Made by a program: the position numbers and the translations under genes
The notes under the pieces: generated by a model
The model's database searches: none
Seen by the model: only the letters and a program-made list of their open reading frames with translations
Told to the model about the DNA's origin: nothing
NCBI GenBank assembly: GCA_964373255.1
Contig: CAYJTG010000005.1
Location: forward strand, 10,638-74,637
Direction: 5' to 3'
From: an uncultured archaeon
GTDB taxonomy: Archaea; Aenigmatarchaeota; Aenigmatarchaeia; GW2011-AR5
DNA: 64,000 bases
Shown here: positions 6,891-57,950 of the stretch, piece by piece
Layout: every line of letters starts with the position of its first letter
Position numbering within the stretch: position 1 is the stretch's first letter

Positions 6891-6942
6891 AGATCATGTA
6901 TGGAGAAAACGCATTTAAAAAGACTTTTGTTTTAGTTAGCTC

Positions 6943-7866
6943 ATGGAAATAGAAACATTACGTGAAACAAAAGAAAGATTGATCATTCCACCTGTTAGTT
7001 CTATTTATCCAGCACTAGGCGTGGCTTACGAGAATGGAGGCTATGAAATAAATCACGCAGGCCTACTTGTAAGGACAGGCAAACATTATTATTATTCTAA
7101 AGCCGAAATCCCTGCGGGATTTCGCATGACAACGGCTGGCGAAGAGCTTGCAATCCAGATTCCATACGAAATAGTTGCAAAGATTCTTGAAAGAACTGAC
7201 GTAAAGGACGTATTGGCAGCCAAGAGCTATACTGATATCAAACAGATTCTTGAATCTTACGCAAAAACCACATCAGAAAAGTCCGCCATTCAATATGTCT
7301 TTGATGCGGAGTCGGAATCAATCCAGCAAACAATTGACGAAAAAGATAAATTGATCATAGACCCGAGAAAAGCCAAGGTCTTTGACGACCTTTTCGCAAG
7401 AGGACCTGACGAAATATACATGTGGCAGTGGACAGAAACGGGACTTCGAGTGCCAAAAGGAAGGGAAGCAGGCAAATACGAAACAGATGCCCAAGGCAGA
7501 AAGTATTGGGCCAGAATAGTTCTTGACGGCGATAAGGAAATCGGAGAAATTTTTGTTCCAGAAGGCGACAGTAGATTAGTTGCTGAATGGGACGAAGTTT
7601 TCGGTGTCCCACGAGTTACAATAGAAAACATGGGCTTTCCACACAAGCCTTATACTACTCACTTTTGGTTTAATGCGACTCCCAACTTAGACAGCACATC
7701 AGGACATTATGACGTTGCCGTCGAGCGCTGGGGCTACTGGCATCGCGATGTCGACGGGGGGTGCCTCGGCGTCGGGGCGAGCTACTGGCGCCTGACTGCG
7801 GGTTCGGCCGACGGCTTCCGCCTCGTTCGGGGGTCGCTACCTGAAATCATTAAAAAAGCAGCTTAA
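6943..7866 (+). CDS. Hypothetical protein with a GC-rich, Gly/Arg/Trp-rich C-terminal segment
   Basis: 307-aa ORF with no recognised motifs. Last ~45 codons (7720-7850) are ~68% GC against ~42% for the window. Confidence 0.3.
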   Translation: MEIETLRETKERLIIPPVSSIYPALGVAYENGGYEINHAGLLVRTGKHYYYSKAEIPAGFRMTTAGEELAIQIPYEIVAKILERTDVKDVLAAKSYTDIKQILESYAKTTSEKSAIQYVFDAESESIQQTIDEKDKLIIDPRKAKVFDDLFARGPDEIYMWQWTETGLRVPKGREAGKYETDAQGRKYWARIVLDGDKEIGEIFVPEGDSRLVAEWDEVFGVPRVTIENMGFPHKPYTTHFWFNATPNLDSTSGHYDVAVERWGYWHRDVDGGCLGVGASYWRLTAGSADGFRLVRGSLPEIIKKAA

Positions 7867-12200: not shown

Positions 12201-12667
12201 TGATTTGCTGTGGTATCTATTGTATTTTTGCCGTCGCTATATTCTGGTTGATCAAGGTGCGTTTCCTCGACGGAAGTAGAAGATTTAAGATCTCTTTTTA
12301 GGATTAGGTCTTCTTCCGGAAATTGAAATATCGGTCTTATACCTGTTAGCGCCCCCTTGTATAAGGATTTATTTAGACTTTTCCAATCGCCACTACAGTA
12401 CCAAACACCTGAGTGATGTTGATGACCATTTTTTCTTGGCTGGTGAACAACATCCTTATGGTTGTTTGGTAGAAAGCCATAAACTACAGGTACCTTTGGT
12501 TCATATCTTATAATGAGAGGGTTGCTGCATCTAGGACACAAATATAGGTTTGTATAGATTTCCTTCCCTTCTTCTAAGACCCTTACAGATTTGCCCATTG
12601 GAGTTAACTCATTAGTAGATACTTTGTGACCTCCATATAGGCACTTTATAATTCCATGATTAGCCAT
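12197..12667 (-). CDS. Hypothetical Cys/His-rich protein (possible Zn-binding), AT-rich codon usage
   Basis: 156 aa with CPRCSNP, HQHHSGVWYCSGDW. Overlaps the helicase start by 4 nt. Composition is visibly more AT-rich than the neighbours. Confidence 0.3.
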   Translation of the reverse strand: MANHGIIKCLYGGHKVSTNELTPMGKSVRVLEEGKEIYTNLYLCPRCSNPLIIRYEPKVPVVYGFLPNNHKDVVHQPRKNGHQHHSGVWYCSGDWKSLNKSLYKGALTGIRPIFQFPEEDLILKRDLKSSTSVEETHLDQPEYSDGKNTIDTTANQ

Positions 12668-12734
12668 AACTTTAATTATAAAAGATGTTTTTATAAAGCA
12701 GCATTTTTTATACTATATCGTACAAATTTACATT

Positions 12735-14114
12735 ATGCAGGAAATACTCGACAGGGTCCTTAATAAAATCAAACCGCTGAAAAAGGAGGATGAGCGCGTC
12801 AGGAGGTTTGTGTCAGACACCATAAGGGTTTCAAAGACCGTTTCTGGGCTGGACTGCGTCGTTGTCGGATCTATAGGCAAATTCACATGGCTCAGCAACG
12901 ACCACGACGTGGACGTATTCATGATATTTCCAAAGGAGACAAAACGGGAAGAGCTCGAGGAAAAAGGGCTCGAATACGGGAAAAAGATTGTCGAGCACCT
13001 GAAGGGAAAATCAAAGATAAAATATGCAGAGCACCCGTACACGCATGCTGTGATCAAGGGCTTTGACGTCGACATCGTGCCCTGCTACCGCATACATAAA
13101 GGCGAGCACATACAGTCAGCCGTTGACCGGTCGCCACTCCACCTGAATTATATTCTTGAGCACCTTTCGCCACGAATGCAGGACGAGGTGCGATTGCTCA
13201 AGCAGTTCTGCAAGGCCCAGGGCATCTACGGCTCTGACGCCAAGCACCTTGGCTTCTCGGGCTACATCTGCGAGCTGCTTATAATATATTACCAGTCATT
13301 TGAAGCAGCAGTTAAGGCAGCCTCGTTATGGCAGGCGCCGCAGATCGTCGACGTGCTTGGATTTACGGACAAGTCAAAATTTCCTGACCAGCCGTTGATA
13401 GTCGTGGATCCAGTCGACAAGGACAGGAACGCGGCGGCTGTCGTCAATGCAGAAAATTTCGCGAAGTTCGTGTCTGCGTGCAAAGCGTTTGTCGAGAAGC
13501 CCAGCATAAATTTTTTCAATGCAATTCCGATAACACCGTTAACGGCAAAACAAATTAAGTACATGCCCAGCAGGGGAACAAGATTTATCGCCATAAAGAT
13601 GACCGCGCCCGACGTCATCGATGACGTCCTGTATCCGCAGCTCAGGAAAGCGCTGAAACGAATATCAAACCTGATGCACCACAACGAATTCTCTGCGTTG
13701 CGTGGCTATGAGTTTGTGAGCACCAAAAACAAGAATGTGTTCCTTATATTTGAGCTGGAGGTCTTCGAGCTCCCGCCCGTCGACAACATGGAAGGCCCAC
13801 CTATATTTTCAAAGACACACACGCAAGAATTTCTTTCCAAGTATCGCGGCAGGTCATTTCTCTACCTGTCCGGCAACAAGTGGGTCGCCGAGGTTAAGCG
13901 CGAGCATAAAACACCTTTGGAACTGTTGGAGAAGTTTTTGAGGCGCGAAAAGGAAAAATTGATCGCAGACGGCATTCCTACTTATATCGCAGAAGTCATT
14001 GCCAAGTGCACGATCCTCGAACAGGAGAAGTTTTTCGACTATGTAAAATCCGATAGGTATTTGTCTGATTTTCTCAGGGAGAAGTATTTTGTCGATCTGG
14101 GAAAAGGGATGTAA
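12735..14114 (+). CDS. cca: CCA-adding enzyme (archaeal class I tRNA nucleotidyltransferase)
   Basis: Pol-beta-like N-terminus GSIGKFTWLSNDHDVDVFMIF (the archaeal CCA GS...D.D motif); 459 aa, typical of archaeal CCA. Confidence 0.85.
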   Translation: MQEILDRVLNKIKPLKKEDERVRRFVSDTIRVSKTVSGLDCVVVGSIGKFTWLSNDHDVDVFMIFPKETKREELEEKGLEYGKKIVEHLKGKSKIKYAEHPYTHAVIKGFDVDIVPCYRIHKGEHIQSAVDRSPLHLNYILEHLSPRMQDEVRLLKQFCKAQGIYGSDAKHLGFSGYICELLIIYYQSFEAAVKAASLWQAPQIVDVLGFTDKSKFPDQPLIVVDPVDKDRNAAAVVNAENFAKFVSACKAFVEKPSINFFNAIPITPLTAKQIKYMPSRGTRFIAIKMTAPDVIDDVLYPQLRKALKRISNLMHHNEFSALRGYEFVSTKNKNVFLIFELEVFELPPVDNMEGPPIFSKTHTQEFLSKYRGRSFLYLSGNKWVAEVKREHKTPLELLEKFLRREKEKLIADGIPTYIAEVIAKCTILEQEKFFDYVKSDRYLSDFLREKYFVDLGKGM

Positions 14115-21421: not shown

Positions 21422-21712
21422 TTAATTTATCCCAAGCATTACCTTGATCTCTTGTGAGGGTTTCCATTGCGGTAAAAAAACAATTTGTATTGATACGTCT
21501 TTTACGCCTTCTATCCGTTTCAGTTTTTCCTTTATGGTCTCGATGAGCACAGGGCCATAAGGACAAGCAGGCGTGGTAAATGTCATTTTTATATTTACCT
21601 TGTCCGTATCGATGTCAATGCCGTAAATAAGCTCCAGCGTCCACACGTCTATATTAATCTCTGGGTCCATGCACTCTTTCAGGACATCTATTACCTGTTG
21701 CATCGTTGTCAT
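21422..21712 (-). CDS. DUF59/MIP18-family Fe-S assembly protein
   Basis: 96 aa; VIDVLKECMDPEINIDVWTLELIYGIDI...VNIKMTFTTPACPYGPVLIETIKEKL matches the DUF59 (PaaD-like) core. Confidence 0.6.
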   Translation of the reverse strand: MTTMQQVIDVLKECMDPEINIDVWTLELIYGIDIDTDKVNIKMTFTTPACPYGPVLIETIKEKLKRIEGVKDVSIQIVFLPQWKPSQEIKVMLGIN

Positions 21713-21752
21713 GATATAACACTAGATAGCAATTCTTATATGATTATTTGAA

Positions 21753-22061
21753 TGGGCTTGGCAGGATTTGAACCTGCGTCACAAGCTCCCAATGAGCATC
21801 AAATTATAGCTCTACAAGGAAAGAAACAAGATACAAGAAAGAACGAAGTTCTTTCTGTACAGCAAGAGCAAAGCTCTTGCTTGTATTACTTCCTTGTGAG
21901 CTATATGTGAAACCGGAAAAACATGTCCGGATTCTTTTCTGGTTTCACTATAAGCTCGGATCATAGTCGTATGAGATGCGAAGCATCTCTATGCTCTAAC
22001 CAAATTGTCCCACCTTCCGCTTTGATGCAGCTTTCTGGAAAGGTGCCTAGACTACAAGCCC
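21753..22061 (-). tRNA. tRNA-like gene with about 235 nt of structured intervening sequence (candidate multi-intron tRNA; anticodon not resolved, loop ATTGGGA suggests Pro/UGG)
   Basis: Minus strand: 5' GGGCTTG-TA-GTCTAGG... and 3' ...GTGAC-GCAGG-TTCAAAT-CCTGC-CAAGCCC-A. 7-bp acceptor helix, canonical T arm, discriminator A. Interior has several perfect hairpins. Confidence 0.5.
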
Positions 22062-22123
22062 TATAGGGATAATGGGTAAAAAGAATTATTAAAAGGCTCT
22101 CTCACAACTAGAACAGTGGTTTA

Positions 22124-22249
22124 ATGGTGAAAAAGAAAACAAAGAAATCCAACAAGAAGGCTGCTATGTGCGCCTGCGGCTGCAAAATGTCTATTAAGAA
22201 TTGCAAATGCTGCGGCATGGGTGGAAAGAAAACCTGTAAGTGCTGCTGA
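22124..22249 (+). CDS. Small Lys/Cys-rich peptide, 41 aa (9 Cys; metallothionein-like or RiPP-precursor-like), not in ORF track
   Basis: Hand translation: MVKKKTKKSNKKAAMCACGCKMSIKNCKCCGMGGKKTCKCC. Paralogue of the peptide at 24375-24527. Confidence 0.45.
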   Translation: MVKKKTKKSNKKAAMCACGCKMSIKNCKCCGMGGKKTCKCC

Positions 22250-22262
22250 GCCTATCATTCAA

Positions 22263-22514
22263 TTAGAGCCGCATCGATTTATTTATCAGGTTATATTTTT
22301 GACTCTTTGATAGTTTCTTGAACGCCACTTCTGCCCTAAGCGCTTCGCCCTTCGTTTCGTGCGCCCAGTATGCAATAATTTCGACCGGAAGCCTGCTTCT
22401 AGTATATTTTGAGGCTTTTCCTTCATTGTGTAGCTTCAGTCTTCTCTTCAAGTTATTGGTATAACCTGTGTAAAATGATCCGTCCTTGCACTTCAAGACG
22501 TATACGTAGAACAT
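22263..22514 (-). CDS. GIY-YIG nuclease family protein (UPF0213-like)
   Basis: MFYVYVLKCKDGSFYTGYTNNLKRRLKLHNEG matches the GIY..YIG..N...R...H motif. Track ORF (to 22553) extends into MITE copy A4, so the internal Met at 22514 is taken as start. Confidence 0.65.
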   Translation of the reverse strand: MFYVYVLKCKDGSFYTGYTNNLKRRLKLHNEGKASKYTRSRLPVEIIAYWAHETKGEALRAEVAFKKLSKSQKYNLINKSMRL

Positions 22515-22524
22515 AAAATTACCT

Positions 22525-22655
22525 GCTCTGTAGAAATGCTCGATAAAGAGCATCGACGTAGACCTATACGTCTCTTGACGTATAGGTCAGCTAGAGATAT
22601 CATCGATAGATGATATCTCTCACGTCGATGCTCTTGCATAGGTTTTCTACAGAGC
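22525..22655. mobile_element. Family-A MITE-like element, diverged copy A4
   Basis: Same architecture as A1. Both internal hairpins carry compensatory substitutions that keep perfect pairing. Confidence 0.65.
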
Positions 22656-22707
22656 AAAATTACCTAATTATATACTATATATTCGGAAAGGATTAAGTCT
22701 GATTTCT

Positions 22708-22815
22708 CAGGAAGGGATTAAGTCTAGACACACAGAAAGCAAAGCTTTCTGGTGCACCAAAGAACCTTTGGTTCTTTGCGTGTTATAAGGGAAACCCAGG
22801 TTTCCCTTAATGTAG
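22708..22815 (-). repeat. Family-H hairpin-string element, copy H3 (reverse orientation)
   Basis: Reverse complement of the 51654-51761 element: cattaagggaaacccaggtttccctta / aaagaaccaaaggttcttt / cagaaagctttgctttctg / tctagacttaatcccttcctg. Confidence 0.6.
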
Positions 22816-22817
22816 AG

Positions 22818-23029
22818 TGGGCTCGCCCGGAATTTCACCGAAGCAGCATAATACTGCGATAGCCACCTAAGGATGGTAATGCCTTAGGAAGGATATCCTT
22901 CCTCGGCTTTGAACCGGGGTCTCATGCTTTTCAGTTTCTTTACTTGATTTTTCTGACTTTCTTGATTAAACTTCTTTTCAAAAGAAGTTTACCCTAAGCA
23001 CGGATCCTAACCAAACTAGACTACGAGCC
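22818..23029 (-). tRNA. Second tRNA-like gene with ~140 nt structured interior; 3' T-arm non-canonical (uncertain)
   Basis: Minus strand 5' GGGCTCG-TA-GTCTAGTTTGGTTAGGATCC... and 3' ...CGAGCCC-A (7-bp acceptor complement 212 nt apart). 5' 15 nt nearly identical to the 21753-22061 gene. Internal CCCGG-TTCAAAG-CCGAG T-arm-like segment. Interior has perfect hairpins (aaacttctttt-gaaa-agaagttt; gaaggatatccttc). Confidence 0.3.
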
Positions 23030-23069
23030 CATAAATTCTACATAGTTTATTAGATTTTTAAGGGGGTGA

Positions 23070-23212
23070 GACACTGTCAACTTAAGGGGTACATAATGGA
23101 ATCGAAGATTCCACTTGTACAGGTGAAGCTTTGCTTCACCATGTATTAGCTATCGCTAATACCCCAGAAAAGGCTGTTGCCTATAGGCAACAGCCGTTAA
23201 GTTGACAGTGCC
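23070..23212. mobile_element. Family-Z TIR element, copy Z1 (internal module replaced)
   Basis: TIRs cactgtcaacttaag / cttaagttgacagtg; internal ggctgttgcc-tatag-gcaacagcc hairpin. Central segment carries the ggaatcgaagattcc and caggtgaagctttgcttcacc modules seen at 15880-16000. Confidence 0.6.
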
Positions 23213-23217
23213 ATGGA

Positions 23218-24123
23218 GTGAACGTTATTAAAGTTCCGGTACAATTTCTAGAGATGCCTATTCCAAAAGGTTTTGATGACCTCGTTAAATTAGCCGTGAA
23301 GGACAGGCCGGAGAAGCCAAAAACCATCGAGGAAGTATGGGATAAATTTCTTTTTGTTGTTTTCATGGGCGGAAAGCGGTCAGAGCCTGAAATACAGTTT
23401 ATTACAACCATGCTCAAGGCAAAGAAACTTGTCCAGTTTGACTATGTCCTGAAGACAGACGGCGACGACTGGCGCGAAGCCGTTGAAGCAGTGCTCAACG
23501 ACCGATTGAAGAGAATGCAGGACGAGGACCTTAAGGTAGCGCTAAAAGAATTCCAAAAAGAGATATTTAGGATAAGCGCTTCAATCAAGGGGGGTGCACG
23601 ATTTTTAAAAAACATGACACCTGACGGACTCGCCGAGGCGCTCAGCAACAAAGAAAAGACTTGGGAATTCATCGAAAACCTGGCCAACAACCAGGACGTT
23701 TCCAACATAAAGTATACAAAGATAATCATTTGGCTGCATTCCATAGGCTACGGCTATGATTTTTGCCCGCCGAGCTGGCAAACAAAAAAATTCATCAATA
23801 CCGAGGTCGGGCCGTATTACAACTTCTACGAGGACGATAAGTATTTCATGAAAAAAGCCGAGGAGTTTTCTGAAGACGTCAAGAAAAAGGTCAAAGGCGC
23901 AACAGCCCGAGACGTGTCTGCGGCAATTTATTATTATATGGTATTAAAAAATTCTCTCCCCACGCGTTCTCCAATAAAGAAAAGATGTACGGCGGCGGTC
24001 ATAGTCCGGTTCCTTAAGAAAAAGAAGCTTTCACTTAAAGACATTTCTGCCGCTCTTGTCGATTTTGACGGCAGAGAGAGGATTATGAAAACATTTTTTG
24101 AATTTTTGAATAAGACAAAATAA
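23218..24123 (+). CDS. Hypothetical protein, 301 aa
   Basis: Long ORF with reasonable codon usage; no motif recognised. Confidence 0.3.
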   Translation: MNVIKVPVQFLEMPIPKGFDDLVKLAVKDRPEKPKTIEEVWDKFLFVVFMGGKRSEPEIQFITTMLKAKKLVQFDYVLKTDGDDWREAVEAVLNDRLKRMQDEDLKVALKEFQKEIFRISASIKGGARFLKNMTPDGLAEALSNKEKTWEFIENLANNQDVSNIKYTKIIIWLHSIGYGYDFCPPSWQTKKFINTEVGPYYNFYEDDKYFMKKAEEFSEDVKKKVKGATARDVSAAIYYYMVLKNSLPTRSPIKKRCTAAVIVRFLKKKKLSLKDISAALVDFDGRERIMKTFFEFLNKTK

Positions 24124-24217
24124 GTATAATCAGTATTGGGCATTCGTCTTGCACAGAAGCAATTGCGTACAAATAGCTACGAGCCCAGCAATTTCTATAA
24201 TGATTTATTATGCATTT

Positions 24218-24372
24218 AAATCTAAGAATTCCACTGTTTTGAAATCTTGCATTCCACCTATCTATTGATGGGTGGTGGAATACGGGATGTAAGAACCACT
24301 GTAATACGTGGCATTGACCAATTTCAAGATGCCACTGGTCTTTGACCAGTGGTTCTTCACATTGGTGGTATT
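24218..24372. repeat. Left copy of the aaatctaagaattccactgtttt...ggatgtaaga.ccactgt direct repeat, with CCACTG boxes
   Basis: Shares about 60 bp in two blocks with 25371-25480, same orientation. Contains aaccactgt and the palindrome ccactggtc-tttg-accagtgg. Confidence 0.55.
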
Positions 24373-24374
24373 GA

Positions 24375-24527
24375 ATGGCAAAAAAGAAGATGGCGAAGAA
24401 AAAATCATCCAGAAAAATGAAAAAATCTAGCAAATCCGCTGCAATGTGTTCGTGCAATTGCGGCATGAGCACGAAAGACTGTGGTTGTTGTGGTAAGGGC
24501 GGCATGCGTACCTGCAGTTGTTGCTGA
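24375..24527 (+). CDS. Small Lys/Cys-rich peptide, 50 aa (paralogue of 22124-22249), not in ORF track
   Basis: Hand translation: MAKKKMAKKKSSRKMKKSSKSAAMCSCNCGMSTKDCGCCGKGGMRTCSCC. Core aligns residue-for-residue with the 41-aa peptide (AAMC.C.C.MS.K.C.CCG.GG..TC.CC). Confidence 0.45.
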   Translation: MAKKKMAKKKSSRKMKKSSKSAAMCSCNCGMSTKDCGCCGKGGMRTCSCC

Positions 24528-24636
24528 TTATTAAGGATGTGTAAATGGGGCGAATTTTTATTAGGCAGAAAAACGCATTTTTGGCCCGAACATATTTATT
24601 TATGTTTATAGTATCACAGTAGAAAGCAGTGGTCTC

Positions 24637-24870
24637 ATGATAGTAAAAATATACACGACAAATCACTGCCCGTACTGCAAGATGGCAAAAGAATTCTTCA
24701 AAATGCACAACGTGAAGTACGACGAAATAAACGTCGAGGAAGACGCAAAGGCGGCAGAGGAAATGATAGAAAAGTCCGGCCAGATGGGCGTTCCTGTAAT
24801 AGAAATAGACGGGAAACTGATCGTAGGTTTTGACAAGCGCGCGATAGAGAGTGCGCTAAAAATAAAGTGA
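24637..24870 (+). CDS. Glutaredoxin-like protein (NrdH/Grx family, CPYC active site)
   Basis: MIVKIYTTNHCPYCKMAKEFF...GQMGVPVIEIDGKLIVGFD is a thioredoxin-fold glutaredoxin. 77 aa. Lies 0.9 kb upstream of nrdR. Confidence 0.7.
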   Translation: MIVKIYTTNHCPYCKMAKEFFKMHNVKYDEINVEEDAKAAEEMIEKSGQMGVPVIEIDGKLIVGFDKRAIESALKIK

Positions 24871-24904
24871 AATCCTGATTTCTCATTTTTTTGTATATTA
24901 GTTA

Positions 24905-25345
24905 TTAATCGCCTACAGGATCTTTTTTATACAACCATGTGTTTCTTTTTTCTGGATGCTTGAAAAAGTGCTTATGCATATAATCCTTCATATAGTCATC
25001 TGTTTTGTATACAAGTTTTGCGTATTTGTTTATACCATCAACTTGTATTTTGCTTGTGCGCGTAAAACGCCCTGCCCTGAATTTCTTAATAGCATGCCGC
25101 ACATCTATATAATTAATACCGCTAGTGTTGTATTGTCTTATAACAGCATTGAGAATAGAAAATGGAGCATCATAAATATTGTTTTCCTGATATAATTCTC
25201 TAATTTCTTCTGCCAAATCTTTAACAAGCTGCGGTTGTTTAGTAGAATCGATAACATGATTCAGTGCGCCCTCGATTATTGTAATGTCTGTTTTGGAATC
25301 TTTTGAAGGGAATTGTGCTTCTATAAGAAATTCTTTGAATCTCAT
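24905..25345 (-). CDS. Hypothetical protein, 146 aa
   Basis: No recognised motifs. Lies between the two direct repeats. Confidence 0.3.
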   Translation of the reverse strand: MRFKEFLIEAQFPSKDSKTDITIIEGALNHVIDSTKQPQLVKDLAEEIRELYQENNIYDAPFSILNAVIRQYNTSGINYIDVRHAIKKFRAGRFTRTSKIQVDGINKYAKLVYKTDDYMKDYMHKHFFKHPEKRNTWLYKKDPVGD

Positions 25346-25370
25346 AGAAATAGCATAAATGAAATGTTTT

Positions 25371-25501
25371 TAAATCTAAGAATTCCACTGTTTTCAAACA
25401 ATGATAGGGTGGAATTCTGGATGTAAGAGCCACTGTCTTTATACAGTGCTTTACCACTGTTTTGTAATTTTTGCCACTGTTATCTCGCAAAAATCACACT
25501 G
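25371..25501. promoter_or_regulatory. Array of five CCACTGT / CACTGT boxes immediately upstream of nrdR (right copy of the direct repeat)
   Basis: CCACTGT at 25384, 25429, 25453, 25473 and cactgt at 25496, spaced ~45, 24, 20, 22 bp. The second forms the palindrome cactgt-ctttat-acagtg. nrdR ATG at 25639. Confidence 0.45.
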
Positions 25502-25638
25502 TCACGACAAAGTCATTTCACTTTTTCAGTTTAGATATTGCAAAGAAGAAAAGCATATTTAAGACAAAATCTCCTATATATTGTAGATTTTCAGGTTTAA
25601 CATACAATGGGTTGTGGGTGTGGATCGAGGTTTCTTCT

Positions 25639-26079
25639 ATGAATTGCGTATTCTGCGGACATGAGACTAAGGTCATGGACAAAAGAACTAATGATGAAAC
25701 TACTCGCCGCAGAAGAGAGTGCCTAAAATGCGAAAAAAGATTTACAACCTATGAGCGCGCGGATATAAGCCTGAGCGTAGTAAAAAAAGACACCCGCCGC
25801 GAGCCTTTTTCCCGCGAAAAAATCCTTGCAGGAATGTTGAGGGCGTGTGAAAAGCGACCTGTGAGCAAACAGCAGATCGAAGAGACCGTTGACAAAATAG
25901 AAAACGAGCTCCGAAAAATAAGTGACGAAGTGCCAAGCAAGAAGATAGGCGAGCTCGTGATGAAGCACCTCAGAAGATTGGACAAGGTTGCCTACATTCG
26001 TTTTGCTTCTGTCTACAGAAGCTTTGACGACATAAATTTGTTCGAGCAAGAGGTGAAGTTGCTGAAGAAGGTTGCGTAA
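25639..26079 (+). CDS. nrdR: NrdR transcriptional repressor (Zn ribbon + ATP cone)
   Basis: MNCVFCGHETKVMDKRTNDETTRRRRECLKCEKRFTTYER (C4 zinc ribbon at the extreme N-terminus) then an ATP-cone domain (VVKKDTRREPFSREKILAGM...). 147 aa; in-frame ATG inside the longer track ORF. Confidence 0.75.
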   Translation: MNCVFCGHETKVMDKRTNDETTRRRRECLKCEKRFTTYERADISLSVVKKDTRREPFSREKILAGMLRACEKRPVSKQQIEETVDKIENELRKISDEVPSKKIGELVMKHLRRLDKVAYIRFASVYRSFDDINLFEQEVKLLKKVA

Positions 26080-26121: not shown

Positions 26122-29100
26122 ATGGCAAAAATAACAAAAGTTCGAAAAAGAGACGGAAGAATTGTAAATTTTGGCAAAGACAAGATAACAAACGCTATAT
26201 TCAAGGCCGTCCAGGCAGTAGGCGGGTCTGACAAAACTATAGCAGAAAGCCTTGCAAATCAGGTCATGGAAATTCTGGAAAAGAATATGCCACCGGGCGC
26301 TATTCCAAACATAGAGGATATACAGGATATTGTCGAGAGGGTTCTGATAGAATCCGGCCATGCAAAGACAGCAAAGGCCTACATACTTTACAGGAATGAG
26401 CACGCCAGAGTAAGGGAAGAGCAGAAAAGAATATTAGGCGGCAAAACAACAAAGCTCCCCTTCAGCATGAATGCCCTGCAGGTTCTTGCAAAGCGCTACC
26501 TTGTAAGAAACAGGGACGGTAATGTTATTGAATCGCCTGATGATATGTTCGAGAGGGTTGCTGATTCTTTGGCAAGCGTGGAGTACGAGTATGGAAAAAC
26601 AAACGAGGAAGTCGAAAAATTTTCCCAGCAGTTCAATGAAATCATGGCAAGTTTTGAGTTCATACCAGCTGGGCGCACAATGACAAACGCGGGCTCGCCG
26701 ACCCCTATAGTGCCTAATTGCATAGTCCTTCATATTGGCGACAACATGGATAACATATTTCAGACACTTAAAGAAGCCTCGCTTCTTCAGCAGGCAGGCT
26801 CTGGGTTGGGATTTCCGTTCCACCTGCTAAGGCCGGCCGGCACCGTTGCAAAGCGCTCCCGTGGGGTAGCCTCCGGTCCGGTCTCTTTCCTGCGCGTTTA
26901 CAATAATGCATTCGGCGTGATAAAACAGCAAAACAGGCACGGCGCGAACATGGGCGTTATGCGCGTCGACCATCCGGATATACTTGAATTCATACACGCA
27001 AAGGACGTCGAGGGCGAGATAAGGAACTTCAACATCTCCGTTGCAATTACAGATGAATTCATGCAGAAGGCACGCGACAACGATTCAACGCCTTGGATAT
27101 GCGAGTGGAACGGCGAAAAGATGAAGCCAAGGCGCGTTTACAGGGATTCAAACGGCATTGTTCTCGACATCAAGGAGGAGACAATGACGGCAAAAGAAAT
27201 CTTCATGGAAATTGTGTCGTCGGCATGGCAGACCGGCGAACCTGGAATAATCTTCATCGACAAAATAAATGATACAAATCCGTTGCCCGGTCTTGGTCGA
27301 ATAGAGGCGTGTAATCCTTGTGTGACCGGCGATACATTAGTAAGCACGGAACACGGAATGATGAAAATATCTGATTTGGCAGAGAAACATGGAAAAGGTG
27401 GCGTATCTGTAATTTGTGACAATAGGATGCCTATAACAATATATGAATCTGATGGAACCAAAGTCCTGATATACAAAGGCACAAAAGGCACACAAATCAA
27501 TAACGTGAGTGCTGCATGGAAATCTGGCTTCAAAGATGTATTGAAAATTGAAACAGAATCGGGGTACGAGCTTGAAGCCACAGCAGATCATAAGATAATG
27601 ACAACAAAAGGATGGATAGATGTCGAAAACCTTACAAAAGAACACGAAATTCTTATTCAATCAGGAGAAGGAAGATTCTCTGTAAACAACCAAATTCCAT
27701 TTGAAGTGCAGAATGAATTTATTGGAGAAAATGGCAGAACTTATAAATATAATTTTCCTCGTCAATGGAACAGGGAATTGGGGCAACTTCTTGGCTGGAT
27801 CGTAGGTGATGGCTGGATAAGAGACAAGGAAAAGGAGTGCGATAAAGAAATAATGACACATATAAAGTCGATAGGAAACATGATTTATGGCTCTGAAAAA
27901 CGAGAAATTGAAAGAATAAGAAATACACACCATCTCAATTATGGTTCACGACGCTTTGTAGAATACCTTATGAAGCTTGGGCTCAAGACAACAGGCGCAG
28001 AAAATAAAGAAGTACCAAAGAGCATTTTCACAGCACCAAAAGACGCTGTATCAGGCTTCCTTCAAGGTTTGTTTTCATCAGATGGCACAGTAATGCTAGA
28101 CGAAAAACATGGCAACTATTATATAAGATTGACAACGAAATCGATAAAACTTGCAAAACAGGTTCAGACACTTCTTCTGAACTTCGGAATTAAGTCAAGA
28201 ATATACGACAGGAGCAGGCCGCCAAAAAAGAACCTATTTACGTATGAAACAAAATCAGGAGAAAAAAGAACTTATGCATCTGACGGAATTCTGTTTGAAG
28301 TGCATGTACATGGCGATACAATAATAAAATTTAATGAACAAATAGGATTTCTATGCAGTAAAAATAAAGAGAAAATAGAAAAGATACTGAAAAAGAATCT
28401 AAGAGACGATAAATTTACAGACAAAGTAAAATATGTCGAGTACATTGGCAAGAAAGATGTCTACGATCTCACAGAACCAGCGACGCACTCTTTCATAGCA
28501 AATGGTATTGTGGTATCAAATTGTGGTGAGCAATTTCTCCACGACGGCGATGTCTGCAATCTTGGTTCGATAAATCTGGAAAAATTTGTAAAAGATGGCA
28601 AAATAGATTTTGATCGATTAAGGCATGTCACACGTTTAGCTGTGCGTATGCTTGACAACGTTGTCGATATCACAGCAGCGCCTGCCGACCGTGTCAATCA
28701 CATGTTCCGCGCAAACCGCAGGGTCGGTTTGGGCATAATGGGCTTTGCGGATATGCTCTATCAACTGAAGATAGGTTATAATGCAGAAGAGGGCGCAAAG
28801 ACAGCAGAAAAGGTCATGAACTGCATTCAAGAATCTGCCCACCAAATGTCGCAAGAGCTTGCTGAGGAGAAAGGCGTGTTTCCAAACTGGGAGAAGAGCG
28901 TATTTGCAAAGAAAGGTATAAAGATGCGAAACGCCGCGCTCACAAACATCGCCCCGACAGGAACTATATCCATGGTCTTCGACGTTTCCGGGGGCGTAGA
29001 ACCTTATTTTGCCTTGGCTTACCACTACCAGGGAATTCTGGGGGGCGCAACCCAGCTCTACTACGTCAACAAGCACCTGAGAAAGACACTGGAAGAGTAT

Positions 29101-29589
29101 GGTTTATACAACGATGTAATAATGAAGCGCATATTTGAGGAAGGAACGCTGCAGCGTATAGAAGAAATCCCTGATGATTTGAAGCGTGTGTTTGTCACGG
29201 CCATGGATATTTCATCCGACGACCACATACGGGTGCAGGCGGCTTTCCAGAAATACGTTGACAACAGCATATCAAAGACGTGCAACTTCCCTGAGGACGC
29301 TACAAAAGAGGACGTCTTTCAGGGATATCTGCTCGCCTGGCAGCTCGGCTGCAAGAGCTGCACCGTGTACAGAAACAACTCACGCAGGCTGCAAGTGCTG
29401 AATCTTAACAAGCAGAAACAGGAGGAAGTTCAGGAAGAGGAGTACGAGCCGCAGCAGCAGAAGATAGCGGTCGCAGCCACAAACGGTTCTACACATTACA
29501 CGACGTGTCCAGAGTGTGACACCGTGCTGGAGCAAAAAGAAGGGTGTTCTTCTTGCCCTCAGTGCGGCTGGGGATTGTGCAGCGTGTAA
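26122..29589 (+). CDS. nrdJ: Class II (B12-dependent) ribonucleotide reductase NrdJ, with N-terminal ATP cone, one intein, and C-terminal Zn ribbon
   Basis: ATP cone [21 protein letters not shown]. Catalytic motif NP|CGEQ split by the intein. C-terminal CPECD...CPQCG. GGAGGT 7 nt upstream of ATG 26122. Extein ~760 aa. Confidence 0.85.
27319..28521 (+). mobile_element. Intein (401 aa) with LAGLIDADG homing-endonuclease domain, inserted before the catalytic Cys of the RNR NPCGE motif
   Basis: N-extein ...EACNP | [11 protein letters not shown] (Cys1, block A) ... [11 protein letters not shown] and [12 protein letters not shown] (two LAGLIDADG-type motifs) ... IANGIVVSN | CGEQF (terminal Asn, +1 Cys). 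Confidence 0.8.
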
Positions 29590-30356: not shown

Positions 30357-30761
30357 TTATATTTTCCCTTTAAAATATTTATTAAAATTAGAAATAGTAT
30401 TGTGCAGCCATTTGACACTTTCCTCTGCCTTGTCTATTTCCATCCATTCATATTCTGTGTGTTCTTTGCTCAATTTTATTTGCTTTGATAACGGTCTGCA
30501 TAAAAATATTATCATCGTGATTCTTTGTCCGTCGTCCCTTGTAAAATGCTGGACTTCGATTGGTGCAACTACATCGATGTCTATGCCAACTTCCTCCTTT
30601 ATCTCTCTTTTAATGCCGTCAAAAGGATTTTCGCCTGCATCAAGTCGCCCGCCAGGTATGTCCCACTGGCTTGGTCGATGAACGTCGTCTGGCCTTCTTT
30701 TAATGATGAGAAGTTTTTCATCGTCGACAATGAATGATTTGACAGCTACAGCAAAATCCAT
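30357..30761 (-). CDS. Nudix hydrolase
   Basis: Nudix box GGRLDAGENPFDGIKREIKEEVGI (G.5E.7REUXEEXGU). Confidence 0.7.
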   Translation of the reverse strand: MDFAVAVKSFIVDDEKLLIIKRRPDDVHRPSQWDIPGGRLDAGENPFDGIKREIKEEVGIDIDVVAPIEVQHFTRDDGQRITMIIFLCRPLSKQIKLSKEHTEYEWMEIDKAEESVKWLHNTISNFNKYFKGKI

Positions 30762-30811
30762 TCTAATAAATTAAAAACAACGCATAAATACTTTCGATTC
30801 AATATTTAGTT

Positions 30812-31336
30812 ATGATCAAAAAAATCTGGACAGGCGACTCCGGAATAACAAAGCTGTGTTGCGAGGAGACCACAAAAGATTCGCTTCTTGTCGATGCATA
30901 CGGTGACGTAGACGAGCTTAATTCTTACTTGGGTCTTGTGCGCGCCCGTCTGGATGACAAAGAAATTGATGCTATTTTAAAAATGATTCAGAACGACCTT
31001 TTCATAATAGGCTCTGATCTTGCAAAGGCGCCCAAAAGCCAGAAGAGCCAGCTTACCGAAGAACACGTTAAAAAATTAGAAGAAACAGTGCACGAAATAC
31101 AAAAACAATTACCGCCATTAAATAAGTTTATCCTGCCGTCGGGTACGCCCGCTTCTGCCCTGCTCCATATCGCCCGTTCTGTCTGCCGCCGCGCAGAGAG
31201 GAAAGTATTTTTTGTGAAGCGGCATGAAATCGTCAATGAAGAGATCCCACGATACCTCAACCGCCTCTCAACGCTATTATTTGATCTTGCGCGTCTTACC
31301 AATAAAAGAGCAGGAATAAAGGAAGACGAATGGTAA
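30812..31336 (+). CDS. PduO-type ATP:cob(I)alamin adenosyltransferase
   Basis: DDKEIDAILKMIQNDLFIIGSDLA and C-terminal FILPSGTPASALLHIARSVCRRAER match PduO/MMAB family conserved blocks. 174 aa. Confidence 0.6.
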   Translation: MIKKIWTGDSGITKLCCEETTKDSLLVDAYGDVDELNSYLGLVRARLDDKEIDAILKMIQNDLFIIGSDLAKAPKSQKSQLTEEHVKKLEETVHEIQKQLPPLNKFILPSGTPASALLHIARSVCRRAERKVFFVKRHEIVNEEIPRYLNRLSTLLFDLARLTNKRAGIKEDEW

Positions 31337-38555: not shown

Positions 38556-39067
38556 TTTTGGTCGACTCCGTTTGATTTTTTTGTTTTTATGGTGGAGAAT
38601 TCAGCATCATATGTTTTGTCATCACAAACTATTCGAGCAACCGTATCATATGTTATTGTATTGCCTGTTATCCATCTATCTATAAAAATATAATTAATTC
38701 GGCCATCAATGAATTTTTTCCCTCGACTATTATCCACGTTAACCCAGATTGCGGATCTATTGTCTATTCCTCTGGCTTTTATCTCTGGACTAAGAACCTC
38801 GTATATTTGAGAATTCCACCCTTTAACTTGTAGTCTAGTCGTGGGGTCCAACCTATAATCTGATACAAGTTTACCCTCTAAAGTATCGCCATTTGAAGAT
38901 ATGAATCTTGTAATTGGAATATTCTGCTCTATTGTTTGCTGTTTGCTTTTTTCTTTATTTTCACTATCACCCGTATATTGTTTAATTAAGTATCCTCCCA
39001 CTAGTAATGCAAGTGAAAGTGCAGTCATATAAGGTAATTTTTTAATTCCTTTCATTTTAACACCCAT
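38552..39067 (-). CDS. Secreted hypothetical protein (signal peptide) (AT-rich islet)
   Basis: N-terminal KKLPYMTALSLALLVGGYLIKQ signal-like segment. 171 aa. Confidence 0.3.
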   Translation of the reverse strand: MGVKMKGIKKLPYMTALSLALLVGGYLIKQYTGDSENKEKSKQQTIEQNIPITRFISSNGDTLEGKLVSDYRLDPTTRLQVKGWNSQIYEVLSPEIKARGIDNRSAIWVNVDNSRGKKFIDGRINYIFIDRWITGNTITYDTVARIVCDDKTYDAEFSTIKTKKSNGVDQK

Positions 39068-39120
39068 ATTAAAGTTAACTACTAAACAGATACAAGTAAC
39101 CTAGTCTTTAAATATATTAT

Positions 39121-39912
39121 GTGGTTGCTATAGATACCACATATTTAAGGCTTACGAACCAGATAATTTTCATGAAGACAGAAAACGAGGAAATTTTGCA
39201 GATGCTGGATTTAACAGAGATCGAGAGTAAGACTTATCTGACATTGCTAGATATAGGAACGTCTAAAGCAGGTACTATAAGCAATCGCGCGCATATTCAT
39301 AGAAGAAATACTTATGACGCTCTGGAAAATTTATTACAGAAGGGGCTTGTCACGTCATTTGTTTCTAACAATCAAAAATTTTGGGCTGCTGTAAACCCAA
39401 AGAAATTATACCTCTTATTAAAAGAAAAAGAATACGCCATATCGAAAATAATGCCAGAGTTAATTTCTAACTTCAATTCCAATAAAGGCAAACAAATTGT
39501 AGAAGTATTTGAAGGTCTTGGGGGTATGAAAACATTTTTTGATGACATGGCTAACTCAAAGAAGGATGTGTACATGCTTTTTGCTACGGGGAGAGCTTAT
39601 TTGAGAATGAAATTGTACATGGAAAGCTGGGATAAAAGAATAAACAATTCAGGAATTAAAGTTAGAGTTCTTTTAAATTCGGATGCAATCAAAGAACCTT
39701 ATCAAAATTATAAATATGGTGAAATTAAAATTTTGCAGAATACATTTTCACCTACGCAGATATTCATTTATGGCAATAAAACAGCTATTGCCATATGGTC
39801 GGATGAACCGATAGCTGCCTTAATTACAAGCAATGAAATTACTAAAGGATTTAAAAAATATTTCGGTTTTCTTTGGAAATTTGGCAAAAGAGTTCATTAT
39901 AATAAAATCTAA
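39121..39912 (+). CDS. TrmB-family transcriptional regulator (wHTH + C-terminal TrmB domain)
   Basis: N-terminal LTEIESKTYLTLLDIGTSKAGTISNRAHIHRRNTYDALENLLQKGLV is TrmB-type wHTH. Paralogue of 57093-57911. Confidence 0.6.
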   Translation: MVAIDTTYLRLTNQIIFMKTENEEILQMLDLTEIESKTYLTLLDIGTSKAGTISNRAHIHRRNTYDALENLLQKGLVTSFVSNNQKFWAAVNPKKLYLLLKEKEYAISKIMPELISNFNSNKGKQIVEVFEGLGGMKTFFDDMANSKKDVYMLFATGRAYLRMKLYMESWDKRINNSGIKVRVLLNSDAIKEPYQNYKYGEIKILQNTFSPTQIFIYGNKTAIAIWSDEPIAALITSNEITKGFKKYFGFLWKFGKRVHYNKI

Positions 39913-40097: not shown

Positions 40098-40721
40098 CTA
40101 TCCGGCTTTAATTACTATCAGTTCTTCCCAGGGTATCTTTTTTCTTTTTATCGCGTCTGCTTTCATACCAACTTCTGAAAATAAGTCGATAACTTCTTTC
40201 TCTCCTGTCAGTGAAGAAATAATTATCAGCACGTTTCCGTTTTTTTTGAGGTAATCCTTGGCCTGTGAAACAAACAGTTCAATTATTTCCCTACCGGATG
40301 ACCCACCGCTGTAAATTATGTCGTTTGGATCGTCCCCTATCGGCAGGTACGGCGGATTGAAAACGATGAGGTCAAACGTGCCCCTCACGTTTTCAAACAT
40401 ATCAGAAACAAATGCCTTTACCACAACATTGTTCTTTGCTGCATTTTGATTTGTCGCTTCCACAGCAGCTGGATTTATGTCCACGGCAGAAACCAGAGCG
40501 CCTGATTTTGCCATAATTATGGACAGCAAGCCGGAGCCGCATCCGACTTCAAGAGCGTTTCTGTTTTTTAGGGCTATATTTTCCAGTGCTTCTGCCAATA
40601 ATTCTGAATCTTCCCTTGGATAGTAGACGTTGTCTGGCACGTCTAATTCCATGTCTTTGTAGAAGAATTTCATGGAATAACTAACAAAGAGAAAGATTAA
40701 AAATGAAGAAACAATCATCAT
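40098..40721 (-). CDS. HemK/PrmC-family protein-(glutamine-N5) methyltransferase (Mtq2-like)
   Basis: SAM motif LEVGCGSGLLS; catalytic NPPY (VFNPPYLP). Probable true start at the internal Met (40673). Confidence 0.75.
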   Translation of the reverse strand: MMIVSSFLIFLFVSYSMKFFYKDMELDVPDNVYYPREDSELLAEALENIALKNRNALEVGCGSGLLSIIMAKSGALVSAVDINPAAVEATNQNAAKNNVVVKAFVSDMFENVRGTFDLIVFNPPYLPIGDDPNDIIYSGGSSGREIIELFVSQAKDYLKKNGNVLIIISSLTGEKEVIDLFSEVGMKADAIKRKKIPWEELIVIKAG

Positions 40722-40788
40722 AAAGAAATATTACAGAGAACAGCTTCAATAATAAAGGTATTTGAAGTTGTTTAACTATAATTAATCA

Positions 40789-42447
40789 ATGGTTGATTCT
40801 GTTGACAATATTGTGCGAAAATACACCCTCGTAAATGCCACCGAGCACGAGGGCAACGCGCAGCCGAAAAGCGTTCTTGGGAAGATCCTCGGAGAATACC
40901 CAGAGCTCAGGACGCAGATATTTGAGCTCAGGACAAAGATAGAGAATGCGGTCCATGAAATTAACAAGCTCGGTCTTGTGCGGCAAAAGAAGGAGCTGGA
41001 GGAATTAGGCGGCTACGCGCCTCAGGCAAGGATAGAAAAGAAGGGGCTTCCTGAATTGGAGCGCGGTCGTGAGAAGTTTGTTGTCAGGTTCGCACCAAAC
41101 CCAGACGGCGCATTGCATATAGGCAACGCACGGCCCGCTATTCTGTCCGATGAGTATGCAAAAAAATACCACGGAAAATTCATCCTGCGCTTTGACGATA
41201 CAGACCCAAAGGTAAAGACAGCTGAAAAAAAATTCTACAAATGGATACGGGAAGACCTCAAGTGGCTGAAGATTCGCGTTAACCAGGAGATAATTGCATC
41301 AAAGCGCCTGAAGTTATATTATAGCATAGCCCAAAAGCTTATTCAGGTCAAAGGCGCGTACGTCTGCACGTGCAATCCTGATAGCTGGAAAAAAATGAGA
41401 GACCACGAAAGGGCGTGCCAGTGCAGAAACCTCGACTTCAAAATTCAAATGAAGCGCTGGAAAGCAATGTTAAAGCATAAATACAAGGAAGGCCAGGCCG
41501 TGCTTCGCGTCAAGACGGACATGGATGCAAAGAACCCCGCCGTAAGAGACTGGCCCGCTTTCCGCATTGTCGACAAACCAGACCATCCGCTGCAGAAAAA
41601 AGCAAAGCTCTGGCCGCTCTATAATTTTGCATCAGCCGTTGACGACCACCTGACAGGCGTTACGCATATATTTCGCGGGCAAGAACATTCAACAAATGAA
41701 GTGAAACAGCGGTACTTCTACCAGCATATGAAGTGGAATTATCCCGTTGTCGTGACACTGGGAAGATTCTCGCTGTCGGGCATGGTATTGAGCAAGAGCC
41801 AAATAAAAGAGGGCATCGAAAAACACAGATTCAGGGACTGGGATGACGTAAGGGTTGGAACTCTGCGAGCTTTGCGCCGCCGTGGGTTTCAGTCAGAATC
41901 TATCAGGCAGATTATTGTTGATATAGGGCCGAAGCCGTCGGACATCACGATTTCTTTTGAAAATCTTTCAGCCTATAATCGCAAAATCATTGATAGAAGT
42001 GCCAATCGCTATTTCTTTGTGGCAAACCCGAAGAAGATAGAGATAAAGGGCATGAAGATCAAGAAAGCACGAATACCGCTGCACCCCGATGATAAAAGGC
42101 GCGGATACAGGAGTTTCTACCTTACATCAACATTTTTTATAGATGAAAAGGATTTTGTCGCATACAAGGGCGTTGAAATAAGGTTGAAGGAGCTCTGCAA
42201 CGTTAAGCTTGATGACCGGAGCGAATTCACCGGTGCACAACTCAAGGCAACGCCAAAAATACAGTGGGTGCCCGCAAAGCACTGCATTGTACGTGTAGTA
42301 ATGCCAAACAAGGAGATCAAGGGCTACGGGGAAATAAACCTGCTCAAAACAAGGACCGGTGATATTGTCCAGTTCGAGCGCTTTGGATTCGTGCGCATCG
42401 AGAAGATCCAGGGCAAGAATGTCGTCGCAGTTTTCGGGCACGAGTGA
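40789..42447 (+). CDS. gltX: Glutamyl-tRNA synthetase (archaeal non-discriminating type)
   Basis: HIGH motif ALHIGNARP and KMSKS-like VLSKSQ; archaeal-type C-terminal anticodon-binding domain. 552 aa. Confidence 0.9.
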   Translation: MVDSVDNIVRKYTLVNATEHEGNAQPKSVLGKILGEYPELRTQIFELRTKIENAVHEINKLGLVRQKKELEELGGYAPQARIEKKGLPELERGREKFVVRFAPNPDGALHIGNARPAILSDEYAKKYHGKFILRFDDTDPKVKTAEKKFYKWIREDLKWLKIRVNQEIIASKRLKLYYSIAQKLIQVKGAYVCTCNPDSWKKMRDHERACQCRNLDFKIQMKRWKAMLKHKYKEGQAVLRVKTDMDAKNPAVRDWPAFRIVDKPDHPLQKKAKLWPLYNFASAVDDHLTGVTHIFRGQEHSTNEVKQRYFYQHMKWNYPVVVTLGRFSLSGMVLSKSQIKEGIEKHRFRDWDDVRVGTLRALRRRGFQSESIRQIIVDIGPKPSDITISFENLSAYNRKIIDRSANRYFFVANPKKIEIKGMKIKKARIPLHPDDKRRGYRSFYLTSTFFIDEKDFVAYKGVEIRLKELCNVKLDDRSEFTGAQLKATPKIQWVPAKHCIVRVVMPNKEIKGYGEINLLKTRTGDIVQFERFGFVRIEKIQGKNVVAVFGHE

Positions 42448-46606: not shown

Positions 46607-46650
46607 GATTGTGATGTGTAAACCAAATCTTAAATACGTAAAAAACTAGA

Positions 46651-46846: not shown

Positions 46847-46850
46847 AAAA

Positions 46851-56351: not shown

Positions 56352-56422
56352 ATCGGAGGCAAACTTGTTTTTACTTGTCTTTTCTTGAGAATTTCTTACT
56401 TGATTTTCTTTCTTAAAGAAAA

Positions 56423-57911: not shown

Positions 57912-57950
57912 AATTCTAAATATTAATTATTACTATATAGTTATAATTAA

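Follow-up and report, generated by a model that had tools for sequence, protein, structure and literature searches.

The operon of nrdR and a class II ribonucleotide reductase (RNR) in an uncultured archaeon of the Aenigmatarchaeota, which lies in a 64-kb stretch of DNA (contig CAYJTG010000005.1 of assembly GCA_964373255.1; hereafter the window), possesses, as judged from its sequence, its own archaeal TATA promoter and a canonical tandem NrdR operator. This operator is located about 70 bp past a conspicuous array of CCACTGT heptamers, which an initial annotation had proposed to be the NrdR operators. The operator described here is of an ordinary kind within a family that is well described, and the array is something else: a real local cis-element, lineage-specific and non-conserved, that resembles operator arrays or leader switches. 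We tentatively favour the interpretation that the heptamers are half-sites of a candidate regulator other than NrdR, placed at TATA-proximal positions of a duplicated promoter-like module and of the promoters of genes for Cys-rich peptides and a glutaredoxin. Almost nothing has been learned by experiment about how organisms of this group regulate their genes, and the correction places an archaeal nrdR operon under an ordinary NrdR operator on a TATA promoter.

NrdR sites are made up of two boxes of 16 bp, each a partial palindrome, that overlap the transcription start (PMC13584703, PMC9110341). The boxes have an AT-rich centre and the conserved positions C4, A6, A8, T9, T11 and G13, are separated by a linker of 15-16 bp (or 26-27 bp) and keep 8 nt between C4 and G13, 9 nt being tolerated in one box only; replacement of A8 and T9 was not critical in a mutational study, and NrdR is encoded by 22% of archaeal genomes (PMC13584703). 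A weight matrix was built from 66 boxes of 33 archaeal nrdR-upstream loci, with the window left out, and was scanned over the entire 64 kb. The top-scoring pair begins at 25571 on the + strand, has a 15-bp linker and reaches 26.9 bits vs 5.2 bits for the next unrelated pair, and its two boxes (25571 and 25602) also rank as the best single boxes in the window. Their centres lie 31 bp from each other; they have an AT content between C4 and G13 of 100% (box 1) and 62.5% (box 2), and end 22 nt before the nrdR ATG. In its conserved positions, its linker and its location at the promoter of the RNR operon, the segment 25571-25617 has the properties of an NrdR box pair, with C4 and G13 present in both boxes and with an overlap with the predicted start of the nrdR-nrdJ operon. 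The same order of elements (TATA, 16-bp box, 15-16 nt, second box, ATG; box consensus ACACAATATATTGTGT) is found at 33 of 42 other DPANN nrdR loci, and the gap between TATA and box 1 is 7 nt in the window vs 9 nt in its three nearest relatives. Box 1 would lie over the transcription start predicted here, with box 2 over the early transcribed region, so NrdR autoregulation of the ordinary type can be expected here. The residues through which NrdR contacts DNA are D-x-R and RRRR (Asp15 and Arg17 in S. coelicolor numbering; PMC9110341). In the alignment of the window NrdR to E. coli NrdR structures (E = 1e-41) VMDKR stands against VIDSR and RRRR is kept, and therefore there is no reason to expect an altered specificity. 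The protein is 60-66% identical to those of Woesearchaeota, Nanoarchaeota and Aenigmarchaeota metagenome-assembled genomes (MAGs).

The proposal that the CCACTGT boxes are themselves NrdR operators drew on their location near nrdR and on a loose likeness to CAC...GTG arms, but it is refuted by the same matrix, with which 16-mers of the array score -4.1 bits at best. These 16-mers reach at most four of the six conserved positions, as do 854 sites of the window, and across 25385-25502 no pair of boxes with a 15-16 bp (or 26-27 bp) linker passes; the comparison with the NrdR-box consensus that had been suggested is thus negative for both conserved positions and linker. In the palindrome CACTGT-N6-ACAGTG the inner C and G are 12 nt apart, whereas an NrdR box needs 8 (PMC13584703), the AT-rich centre with A6 and T11 is absent, and there is no partner box at 15-16 bp. 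Unlike NrdR boxes, the array is made of 7-bp direct repeats with a wrong arm spacing and has no AT-centred palindrome. With the canonical pair standing just downstream, we give this reading hardly any credence. The joint NrdR regulon that had been envisaged for the operon, the Cys-peptides and the glutaredoxin finds no counterpart in the window either, since no other pair exceeds 5.2 bits.

The array is present and far beyond chance, although its positions had initially been given 1 nt too low. Four exact copies of CCACTGT on the + strand (boxes 1-4) are followed by CACTGT at 25497-25502 (box 5), and a lone inverted ACAGTG stands between boxes 2 and 3; relative to nrdR, the array stands 137-254 bp ahead of the ATG and some 50-170 bp ahead of the TATA. 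Its clustering is non-random: CCACTGT occurs 12 times in the window vs 3.8 +/- 1.9 expected, none of 100 shuffles reaching 12, and six CACTGT/ACAGTG are found inside 120 bp, the maximum cluster being 3 over 300 first-order Markov simulations. In 977 kb of related loci, clusters of at least three were seen solely in contigs of the same organism. Though intergenic DNA makes up 17% of the window, it contains 10 of the 23 CCACTG, and all ten fall within a 3.4-kb locus at 22.1-25.5 kb, in the four neighbouring regions that precede Cys-peptide 1, Cys-peptide 2, the glutaredoxin and nrdR. A fallback suggestion of the initial annotation, that another regulator ties these genes into one regulon, is compatible with the confinement of the motif to these regions.

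The start-to-start intervals of the boxes are 45, 24, 20 and 23 nt (the last is 22 nt from the CACTGT core), so that a spacing of about two helical turns, as originally described, is roughly true of three of the four intervals but not of the first. By arithmetic, the helical phases of boxes 2-5 differ by about 0.3 turn, and those of all five boxes by 0.6 turn. No tandem array was detected by Tandem Repeats Finder (TRF) at a minimum score of 30; the heptamer alone recurs, in an extended form TAAGAA(n0-2)CCACTGT-T, and the array does not consist of head-to-tail copies of a single unit. The heptamer is exact in four copies, and the spacers between copies have no detectable similarity, which suggests that the boxes themselves are under selection.

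Boxes 1 and 2 sit in a split direct repeat, TTTAAATC-TAAGAATTCCACTGT plus GGATGTAAGArCCACTGT, whose second occurrence is found 1.15 kb upstream and precedes Cys-peptide 2 (module copies 1 and 2 in Table 1). The repeat consists of block D3 (ATGnnTTTAAATCTAAGAATTCCACTGTTTTsAAA, that is, a TATA-like box, 8 nt and the heptamer; 91% identity between the copies) and block D6 (GGTGGAATnCnGGATGTAAGArCCACTGT; 90% identity). In copy 1 the blocks are separated by an extra 20-nt hairpin, and the differences between the copies spare TTTAAATC, TAAGA and CCACTGT. Past D6 no residual similarity between the two loci was detected, which, together with the lack of a TRF tandem unit, means that the module is a compact duplicated unit and that boxes 3-5 are not simple tandem copies. 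The possibility, raised at the outset as one that would undermine a regulatory role, that the motif is simply part of a direct repeat is half true: the repeat takes in two of the five boxes but itself bears a TATA box. TTTAAATC fits the TTTAAAWA boxes that stand 24-33 nt before leaderless ATGs in the window, although its similarity in the transcription factor B recognition element (BRE) is weak and the starts are predicted. In copy 2 the centre of the TATA is 27-28 nt from two ATGs, those of ORF146 (open reading frame, - strand, 25345) and of a 53-codon ORF (+ strand, 25401); in copy 1 it is about 29 nt from a - strand tRNA-like 5' end and 153 nt ahead of Cys-peptide 2.

The sites at other genes that had been reported initially were confirmed upstream of Cys-peptide 2, the glutaredoxin and Cys-peptide 1. 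Relative to the ATG, the site occupies -10 to -5 at the glutaredoxin and -11 to -5 at Cys-peptide 1, and the CAGTGG of Cys-peptide 2 is 22 nt ahead of the ATG. The palindrome CCACTGGTCtttGACCAGTGG also exists, at 24332-24352 and not at 24338-24358. About 65 gene upstream regions of the window point to mRNAs that mostly lack a leader, the ATG having a TTTAAAWA-type TATA 24-33 nt ahead of it, while leadered genes carry a GGAGGT/AGGTG ribosome-binding site. Since leaderless ATGs here have their TATA box at -33 to -24, box 1 and the boxes of the glutaredoxin and Cys-peptide 1 fall between TATA and start.

Archaeal repressors placed between TATA and the transcription start block polymerase recruitment. 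Among archaeal operators around TATA, those of the Lrp family have several regularly spaced boxes, and TrmB, MDR1 and Phr-type repressors bind between TATA and start. In a comparison based on this general knowledge, the array resembles TATA-proximal operators in that four promoters have the sites between their TATA and predicted start, and in being present in multiple copies about two turns apart at a few neighbouring, functionally related genes. The CCACTGT heptamers would then be recognition half-sites of a lineage-specific DNA-binding regulator other than NrdR, located between TATA and the predicted start in the module (TTTAAATC-N8-CCACTGT, in two copies), at the glutaredoxin and at Cys-peptide 1. 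Boxes 2-5, spaced by 20-24 bp downstream of the module TATA, would permit cooperative binding, and part of the array would have arisen by duplication of the module of about 75-95 bp. In this scheme the transcription starts, the regulator protein and any effect on nrdR are presumed.

Several observations weigh against such a regulator. No cognate protein was found, the sole recognised transcription factor gene in the window being of the TrmB family and 14 kb away, and none is known for the motif. Unlike in archaeal operators, the orientation of the half-sites is not uniform, CCACTGT being in the sense orientation after the module TATA and CAGTGG at Cys-peptide 1, Cys-peptide 2 and the glutaredoxin, and the palindromes have spacers of 3 and 6 nt. 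The helical phasing is approximate only, and the transcription starts are predictions. Duplication alone accounts for two of the five boxes, with box 3 perhaps being a third partial copy, and the same sequences form stable hairpins on either strand, for which an element at the RNA level would account just as well. Conservation does not extend beyond the own lineage: CCACTG is absent within 350 bp upstream of nrdR from all 32 archaeal loci of the genome collection and all 15 metagenome loci, so that the comparative support is limited to one partial case.

Table 1. Positions in the window of the operator, the heptamer array, the promoter-like module and associated features.
Feature	Position	Strand	Remarks
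Cys-peptide 1 ACAGTGG	22113-22119	- (motif)	4 nt before ATG 22124; site at 22114 on - strand; TATA-like AATTATTAAAAGG upstream
Module copy 1, upstream of Cys-peptide 2	24210-24302	+	D3 24210-24244, D6 24274-24302
Cys-peptide 2 upstream sites	24231, 24296, 24332; 24347		last on - strand
Perfect hairpin CCACTGGTC-ttt-GACCAGTGG	24332-24352	+	Cys-peptide 2 leader, 9 bp
Glutaredoxin CAGTGG	24627-24632	- (motif)	4 nt before ATG 24637; TATA-like TTTATAGT upstream
ORF146	24905-25345	-	divergent from array; ATG 27 nt from module TATA centre, suits leaderless gene
Module copy 2	25364-25436	+	D3 25364-25398, TATA-like TTTAAATC 25369-25376, D6 25408-25436
Inverted repeat AGAATTCCAC/GTGGAATTCT in module copy 2	25379-25388 / 25409-25418	+	between D3 and D6
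CCACTGT box 1	25385-25391	+	8 nt 3' of TATA-like TTTAAATC; within block D3 copy 2
CCACTGT box 2	25430-25436	+	terminates block D6 copy 2; 5' arm of CACTGT-N6-ACAGTG
Inverted ACAGTG	25443-25448	+	can pair with box 2 or box 3; TTTTGTAATTTTT after box-3 pairing
CCACTGT box 3	25454-25460	+	including flank, 89% identity over 18 nt to 3' part of D3 copy 1 (family D1)
CCACTGT box 4	25474-25480	+	loop of inverted repeat GTAATTTTTGC / GCAAAAATCAC (25464-25474 / 25487-25497)
CACTGT box 5	25497-25529	+	opens conserved non-coding block CACTGTCACGACAAAGTCATTTCACTTTTTCAG
Conserved block	window 25497-25545; L004 1089-1135; L088 2040-2085; L091 1615-1660		
nrdR TATA-like box TATTTAAG	25556-25563	+	NrdR box 1 follows after 7 nt; assignment by analogy to relatives
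NrdR box 1 CTCCTATATATTGTAG	25571-25586	+	C4 A6 A8 T9 T11 G13, 6/6
NrdR box 2 ATACAATGGGTTGTGG	25602-25617	+	C4 A6 T11 G13, 4/6 (A8, T9 replaced); highest single-box score in window
nrdR	25639-26079	+	Zn-ribbon (PF22811) + ATP-cone (PF03477)
Class II RNR with intein	26122-29589	+	follows nrdR

The one partial case lies next to a non-coding block, CAsTGTCACGnnAAAGTCATTTCACnTTTnTnAAATATATTC, whose first six bases are box 5. Four lineages (the window, L004, which equals L090, L088 and L091) have this block conserved at a distance of about 30-55 nt upstream of their nrdR TATA. Just upstream of the block, the nearest relative, L004, has ACTGTT-cacta-AACAGT (N5) plus CAGTGTCACG at the equivalent place, and L088 has CACTT-ac-AAGTG at the matching place. 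These partial palindromes suggest that the palindrome may predate the array and that boxes were added in the lineage of the window. The block also includes a second TATA-like sequence, and it may act as a promoter, upstream or divergent, or be bound by another factor; it had no match in scans of viral contigs.

The strongest competitor of the operator interpretation, which we nevertheless consider unlikely, is an element acting at the RNA level, in which CCACUG(U) copies, transcribed on the + strand from the module TATA, pair with CAGUGG(UU) just 5' of start codons. In its cis form this would be a two-state switch in the 130-nt leader of Cys-peptide 2, and in its trans form a transcript of about 70 nt, running from near 25399 to the T-runs at 25457-25473 and acting on the 5' ends of Cys-peptide 1 and the glutaredoxin. 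The Cys-peptide 2 leader (24243-24380) does fold with z = -4.9, and in it AAGAACCACUG (24291-24301) is perfectly complementary over 11 nt to CAGUGGUUCUU (24347-24357), in competition with the 9-bp hairpin at 24332-24352, the 3' arm of which has an alternative 11/11 pairing with AAGAACCACTG at 24291-24301. Two CCACUG segments of the leader thus vie for one CAGUGGUUCUU, the alternative structure having -50.9 vs -52.9 kcal/mol, a difference of 2, and such mutually exclusive, nearly isoenergetic CCACUG/CAGUGG pairings by a ribosome-binding region are like those of RNA switches and attenuators. The inverted copies stand 4 nt (Cys-peptide 1 and glutaredoxin) and 22 nt (Cys-peptide 2) ahead of the ATG, and of the two sides of the module TATA it is the + side that has the better BRE-like sequence (AAATGTT), as compared with other promoters of the window. 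The region upstream of nrdR has a hairpin plus T-run, as in leader RNA elements and seed-repeat small RNAs; ACAGTG-N6-CACTGT followed by TTTGTAATTT there was called as terminator-like. However, two terminator-like elements were found vs 1.1 expected, a number within expectation, and archaeal termination is independent of hairpins.

Unlike in leader switches, the + strand upstream of nrdR is not unusually structured when folded from the predicted start (z = -1.4), and the full intergenic regions fold about equally on both strands and so provide no strand signal. The six-base stems are weak, the copies number two, so that covariation cannot be assessed, and no ligand or partner is known. Rfam 15 gave no match at the gathering threshold in the window and chance-level matches only at E <= 5 in 21700-25700. 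Since mRNAs here are mostly leaderless, the targets at Cys-peptide 1 and the glutaredoxin may also be outside the RNA. A small RNA system that combines the two forms, with copy 1 as a switchable Cys-peptide leader and the nrdR-upstream copy as a short RNA with several CCACUGU seeds that would pair with CAGUGG(U) where translation of the Cys-peptide and glutaredoxin mRNAs begins, appears distinctly improbable. If true, it would couple the expression of thiol/metal-peptides to the operon for deoxynucleoside triphosphate synthesis independently of NrdR. If a second regulator uses the heptamers as operators, or if they pair as RNA, the outcome would be a small lineage-specific circuit joining two metallothionein-like Cys-rich peptides, a glutaredoxin and perhaps the nrdR-upstream region.

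A further alternative, to which we assign a slightly lower chance than to an RNA element, is that the array has no dedicated function and is a by-product of repeated local duplication of a promoter or dispersed-repeat module in a variable chromosome region flanked by tRNA genes. It is favoured by the position of boxes 1 and 2 in a split repeat with 90-91% identity, by the resemblance of box 3 and its flank to the 3' part of D3, by the absence of the array from relatives, and by unitigs from three samples that break inside the module (25371-25400), hinting at further copies. Between ORF301 and nrdR synteny is not kept, and relatives have toxin-antitoxin genes there: the neighbourhoods of ORF301 homologues differ (toxin-antitoxin, Fic and PIN genes), no CCACTGT motif was seen in those examined, and the dissimilarity marks the ORF301-nrdR segment as variable. 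Four exact heptamers with unrelated spacers are, however, unlike the neutral decay of duplicates, the motif at Cys-peptide 1 and the glutaredoxin is outside any detectable repeat, and the palindrome is partly conserved in L004.

Far less probable is that the boxes belong to a real small gene, the leaderless ORF of 53 codons at 25401-25562 (MIGWNSGCKSHCLYTVLYHC...), in which boxes 2, 3 and 5 encode (S/Y)HC. Its ATG is 28 nt from the module TATA centre, as in leaderless genes of this genome, its 55-nt divergent layout with ORF146 matches other divergent pairs, and neighbouring genes encode Cys-rich peptides. Against it, box 4 is in a different frame, module copy 1 has no ATG at the corresponding place and its D6 is read in another frame, the conserved block in L004 is closed by stops or in another frame, and no public assembly calls the ORF, the stop codon of which overlaps the nrdR TATA.

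We consider it even less plausible that the array represents origin recognition box (ORB or mini-ORB) repeats or iterons bound by an initiator. Like such repeats, it has short direct repeats with CAGTGG that cluster, about 22 bp apart, in intergenic DNA rich in AT; CAGTGG is contained in the Pyrococcus mini-ORB TTCCAGTGGAACT, a 13-bp unit with perfectly conserved TTCC and GAA cores (PMC1904270), and the GC skew changes sign near 22 kb. The TTCC...GAA core is missing from the array, however: boxes 2-5 have no TTCC, and in the two D3 copies the spacing is wrong, with ACTGTTTT standing between TTCC and GAA/CAA. No Orc1/Cdc6 domain was found among about 48 ORFs scanned by Pfam (most ORFs of at least 90 aa), MCM is 21 kb off, and the skew tracks gene orientation.

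ORF146, divergent from the array, was considered as a possible regulator and rejected: it is an orphan that lacks both an informative homologue and a confident model. A word-index search gave no homologue, PDB, Pfam and PHROG gave no match, and among 1.8 billion representatives there was one weak match, to a 37-residue unit of an 877-aa repeat protein. The single-sequence AlphaFold model has a pLDDT (predicted local distance difference test score) of 44 and is unusable, its all-helical prediction being of very low confidence. Two further candidates concerning the module were also rejected. A decayed paralogue of the Cys-peptide 2 gene 3' of module copy 2 aligned locally no better than shuffles, and a reading of D6 as a C/D-box small RNA fails on manual check, the box-like elements being 9 and 5 nt apart, which excludes 12-nt guides.

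In Logan unitigs of three independent samples (loci L001-L003 and L084-L087) the array is identical, and all of these unitigs end at 25371-25400 inside the module, in the same 30-mer. Another unitig end is at 23185, inside a three-copy structured element described below. These ends hint at more genomic copies or at strain-level rearrangement.

Cys-peptides 1 (22124-22249, 41 aa) and 2 (24375-24527, 50 aa) are encoded on the + strand and are Lys-rich and Cys-rich paralogues with the common pattern AAMCxCxC..MSxKxCxCCGxGGxxTCxCC. They had no Pfam or PHROG match, no retrievable homologue and no gene call in public assemblies. Each of the two genes lies 3' of a - strand tRNA-like 5' end, with which it has the TATA in common. 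The leader of Cys-peptide 2 (24243-24380, +), about 130 nt long, is strongly structured in a mostly leaderless genome, and its lowest-energy fold has the beginning of the ribosome-binding region in a paired state. Divergent gene pairs with 39-67 nt between them (6890-6943, 12667-12735, 30761-30812, 39067-39121, 40721-40789 and 57911-57951) seem to use one central TATA with BRE-like AAAnGtC on both sides, which would be a compact bidirectional promoter architecture yielding leaderless mRNAs.

The window is chromosomal DNA of a DPANN archaeon and encodes TBP, MCM, FttA, a proteasome subunit, CCA-adding enzyme, prefoldin and SepF. ORF301 (23218-24123, +; called as 289 aa) is a conserved hypothetical protein, with 87 homologues down to 41% identity, the named ones all being from Aenigmarchaeota MAGs, and has no Pfam domain and no PDB relative. 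Relative to L168 and L169, the structured element is inserted between the TATA and the ATG of this gene. Its three copies on the + strand (23070-23212, 46650-46856 and 56263-56352) are closed by a stem of 16 bp (GCACTGTCAACTTAAG / CTTAAGTTGACAGTGC) and contain two hairpins, and their termini are CACTGT/ACAGTG hexamers, as in the array. The minimal copy folds with -68 kcal/mol (z = -12), and between copies one hairpin shows three compensatory base-pair changes, besides which there are large insertions. The element had no match in Rfam, in viral contigs or in related loci, and it could be a new family of non-coding RNA or an element like a miniature inverted-repeat transposable element.

ARAGORN found no tRNA in the 64 kb, and the Rfam tRNA model gave no match even at E <= 5. 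There are nevertheless tRNA genes broken by several long introns, at about 22830-23031 (-) and 21755-22062 (-), an example being GGGCTCGTAGTCTAGTTTGGTTAGGATCCGTGCTTAGGGT, intron, AGCATGAGACCCCGGTTCAAAGCCG, intron, CCGGGCGAGCCCA. A CTACGAGCCC motif, the same as in the tRNA-like sequence beside module copy 1, is found on both sides of ORF301 in the window, L168 and L169. Immediately to the left of module copy 1, at 24125-24193 (-), there is a sequence like a tRNA 5' end, GGGCTCGTAGCTA..., which might represent a second tRNA gene, whether intron-containing, split or truncated, or else the scar of an old integration.

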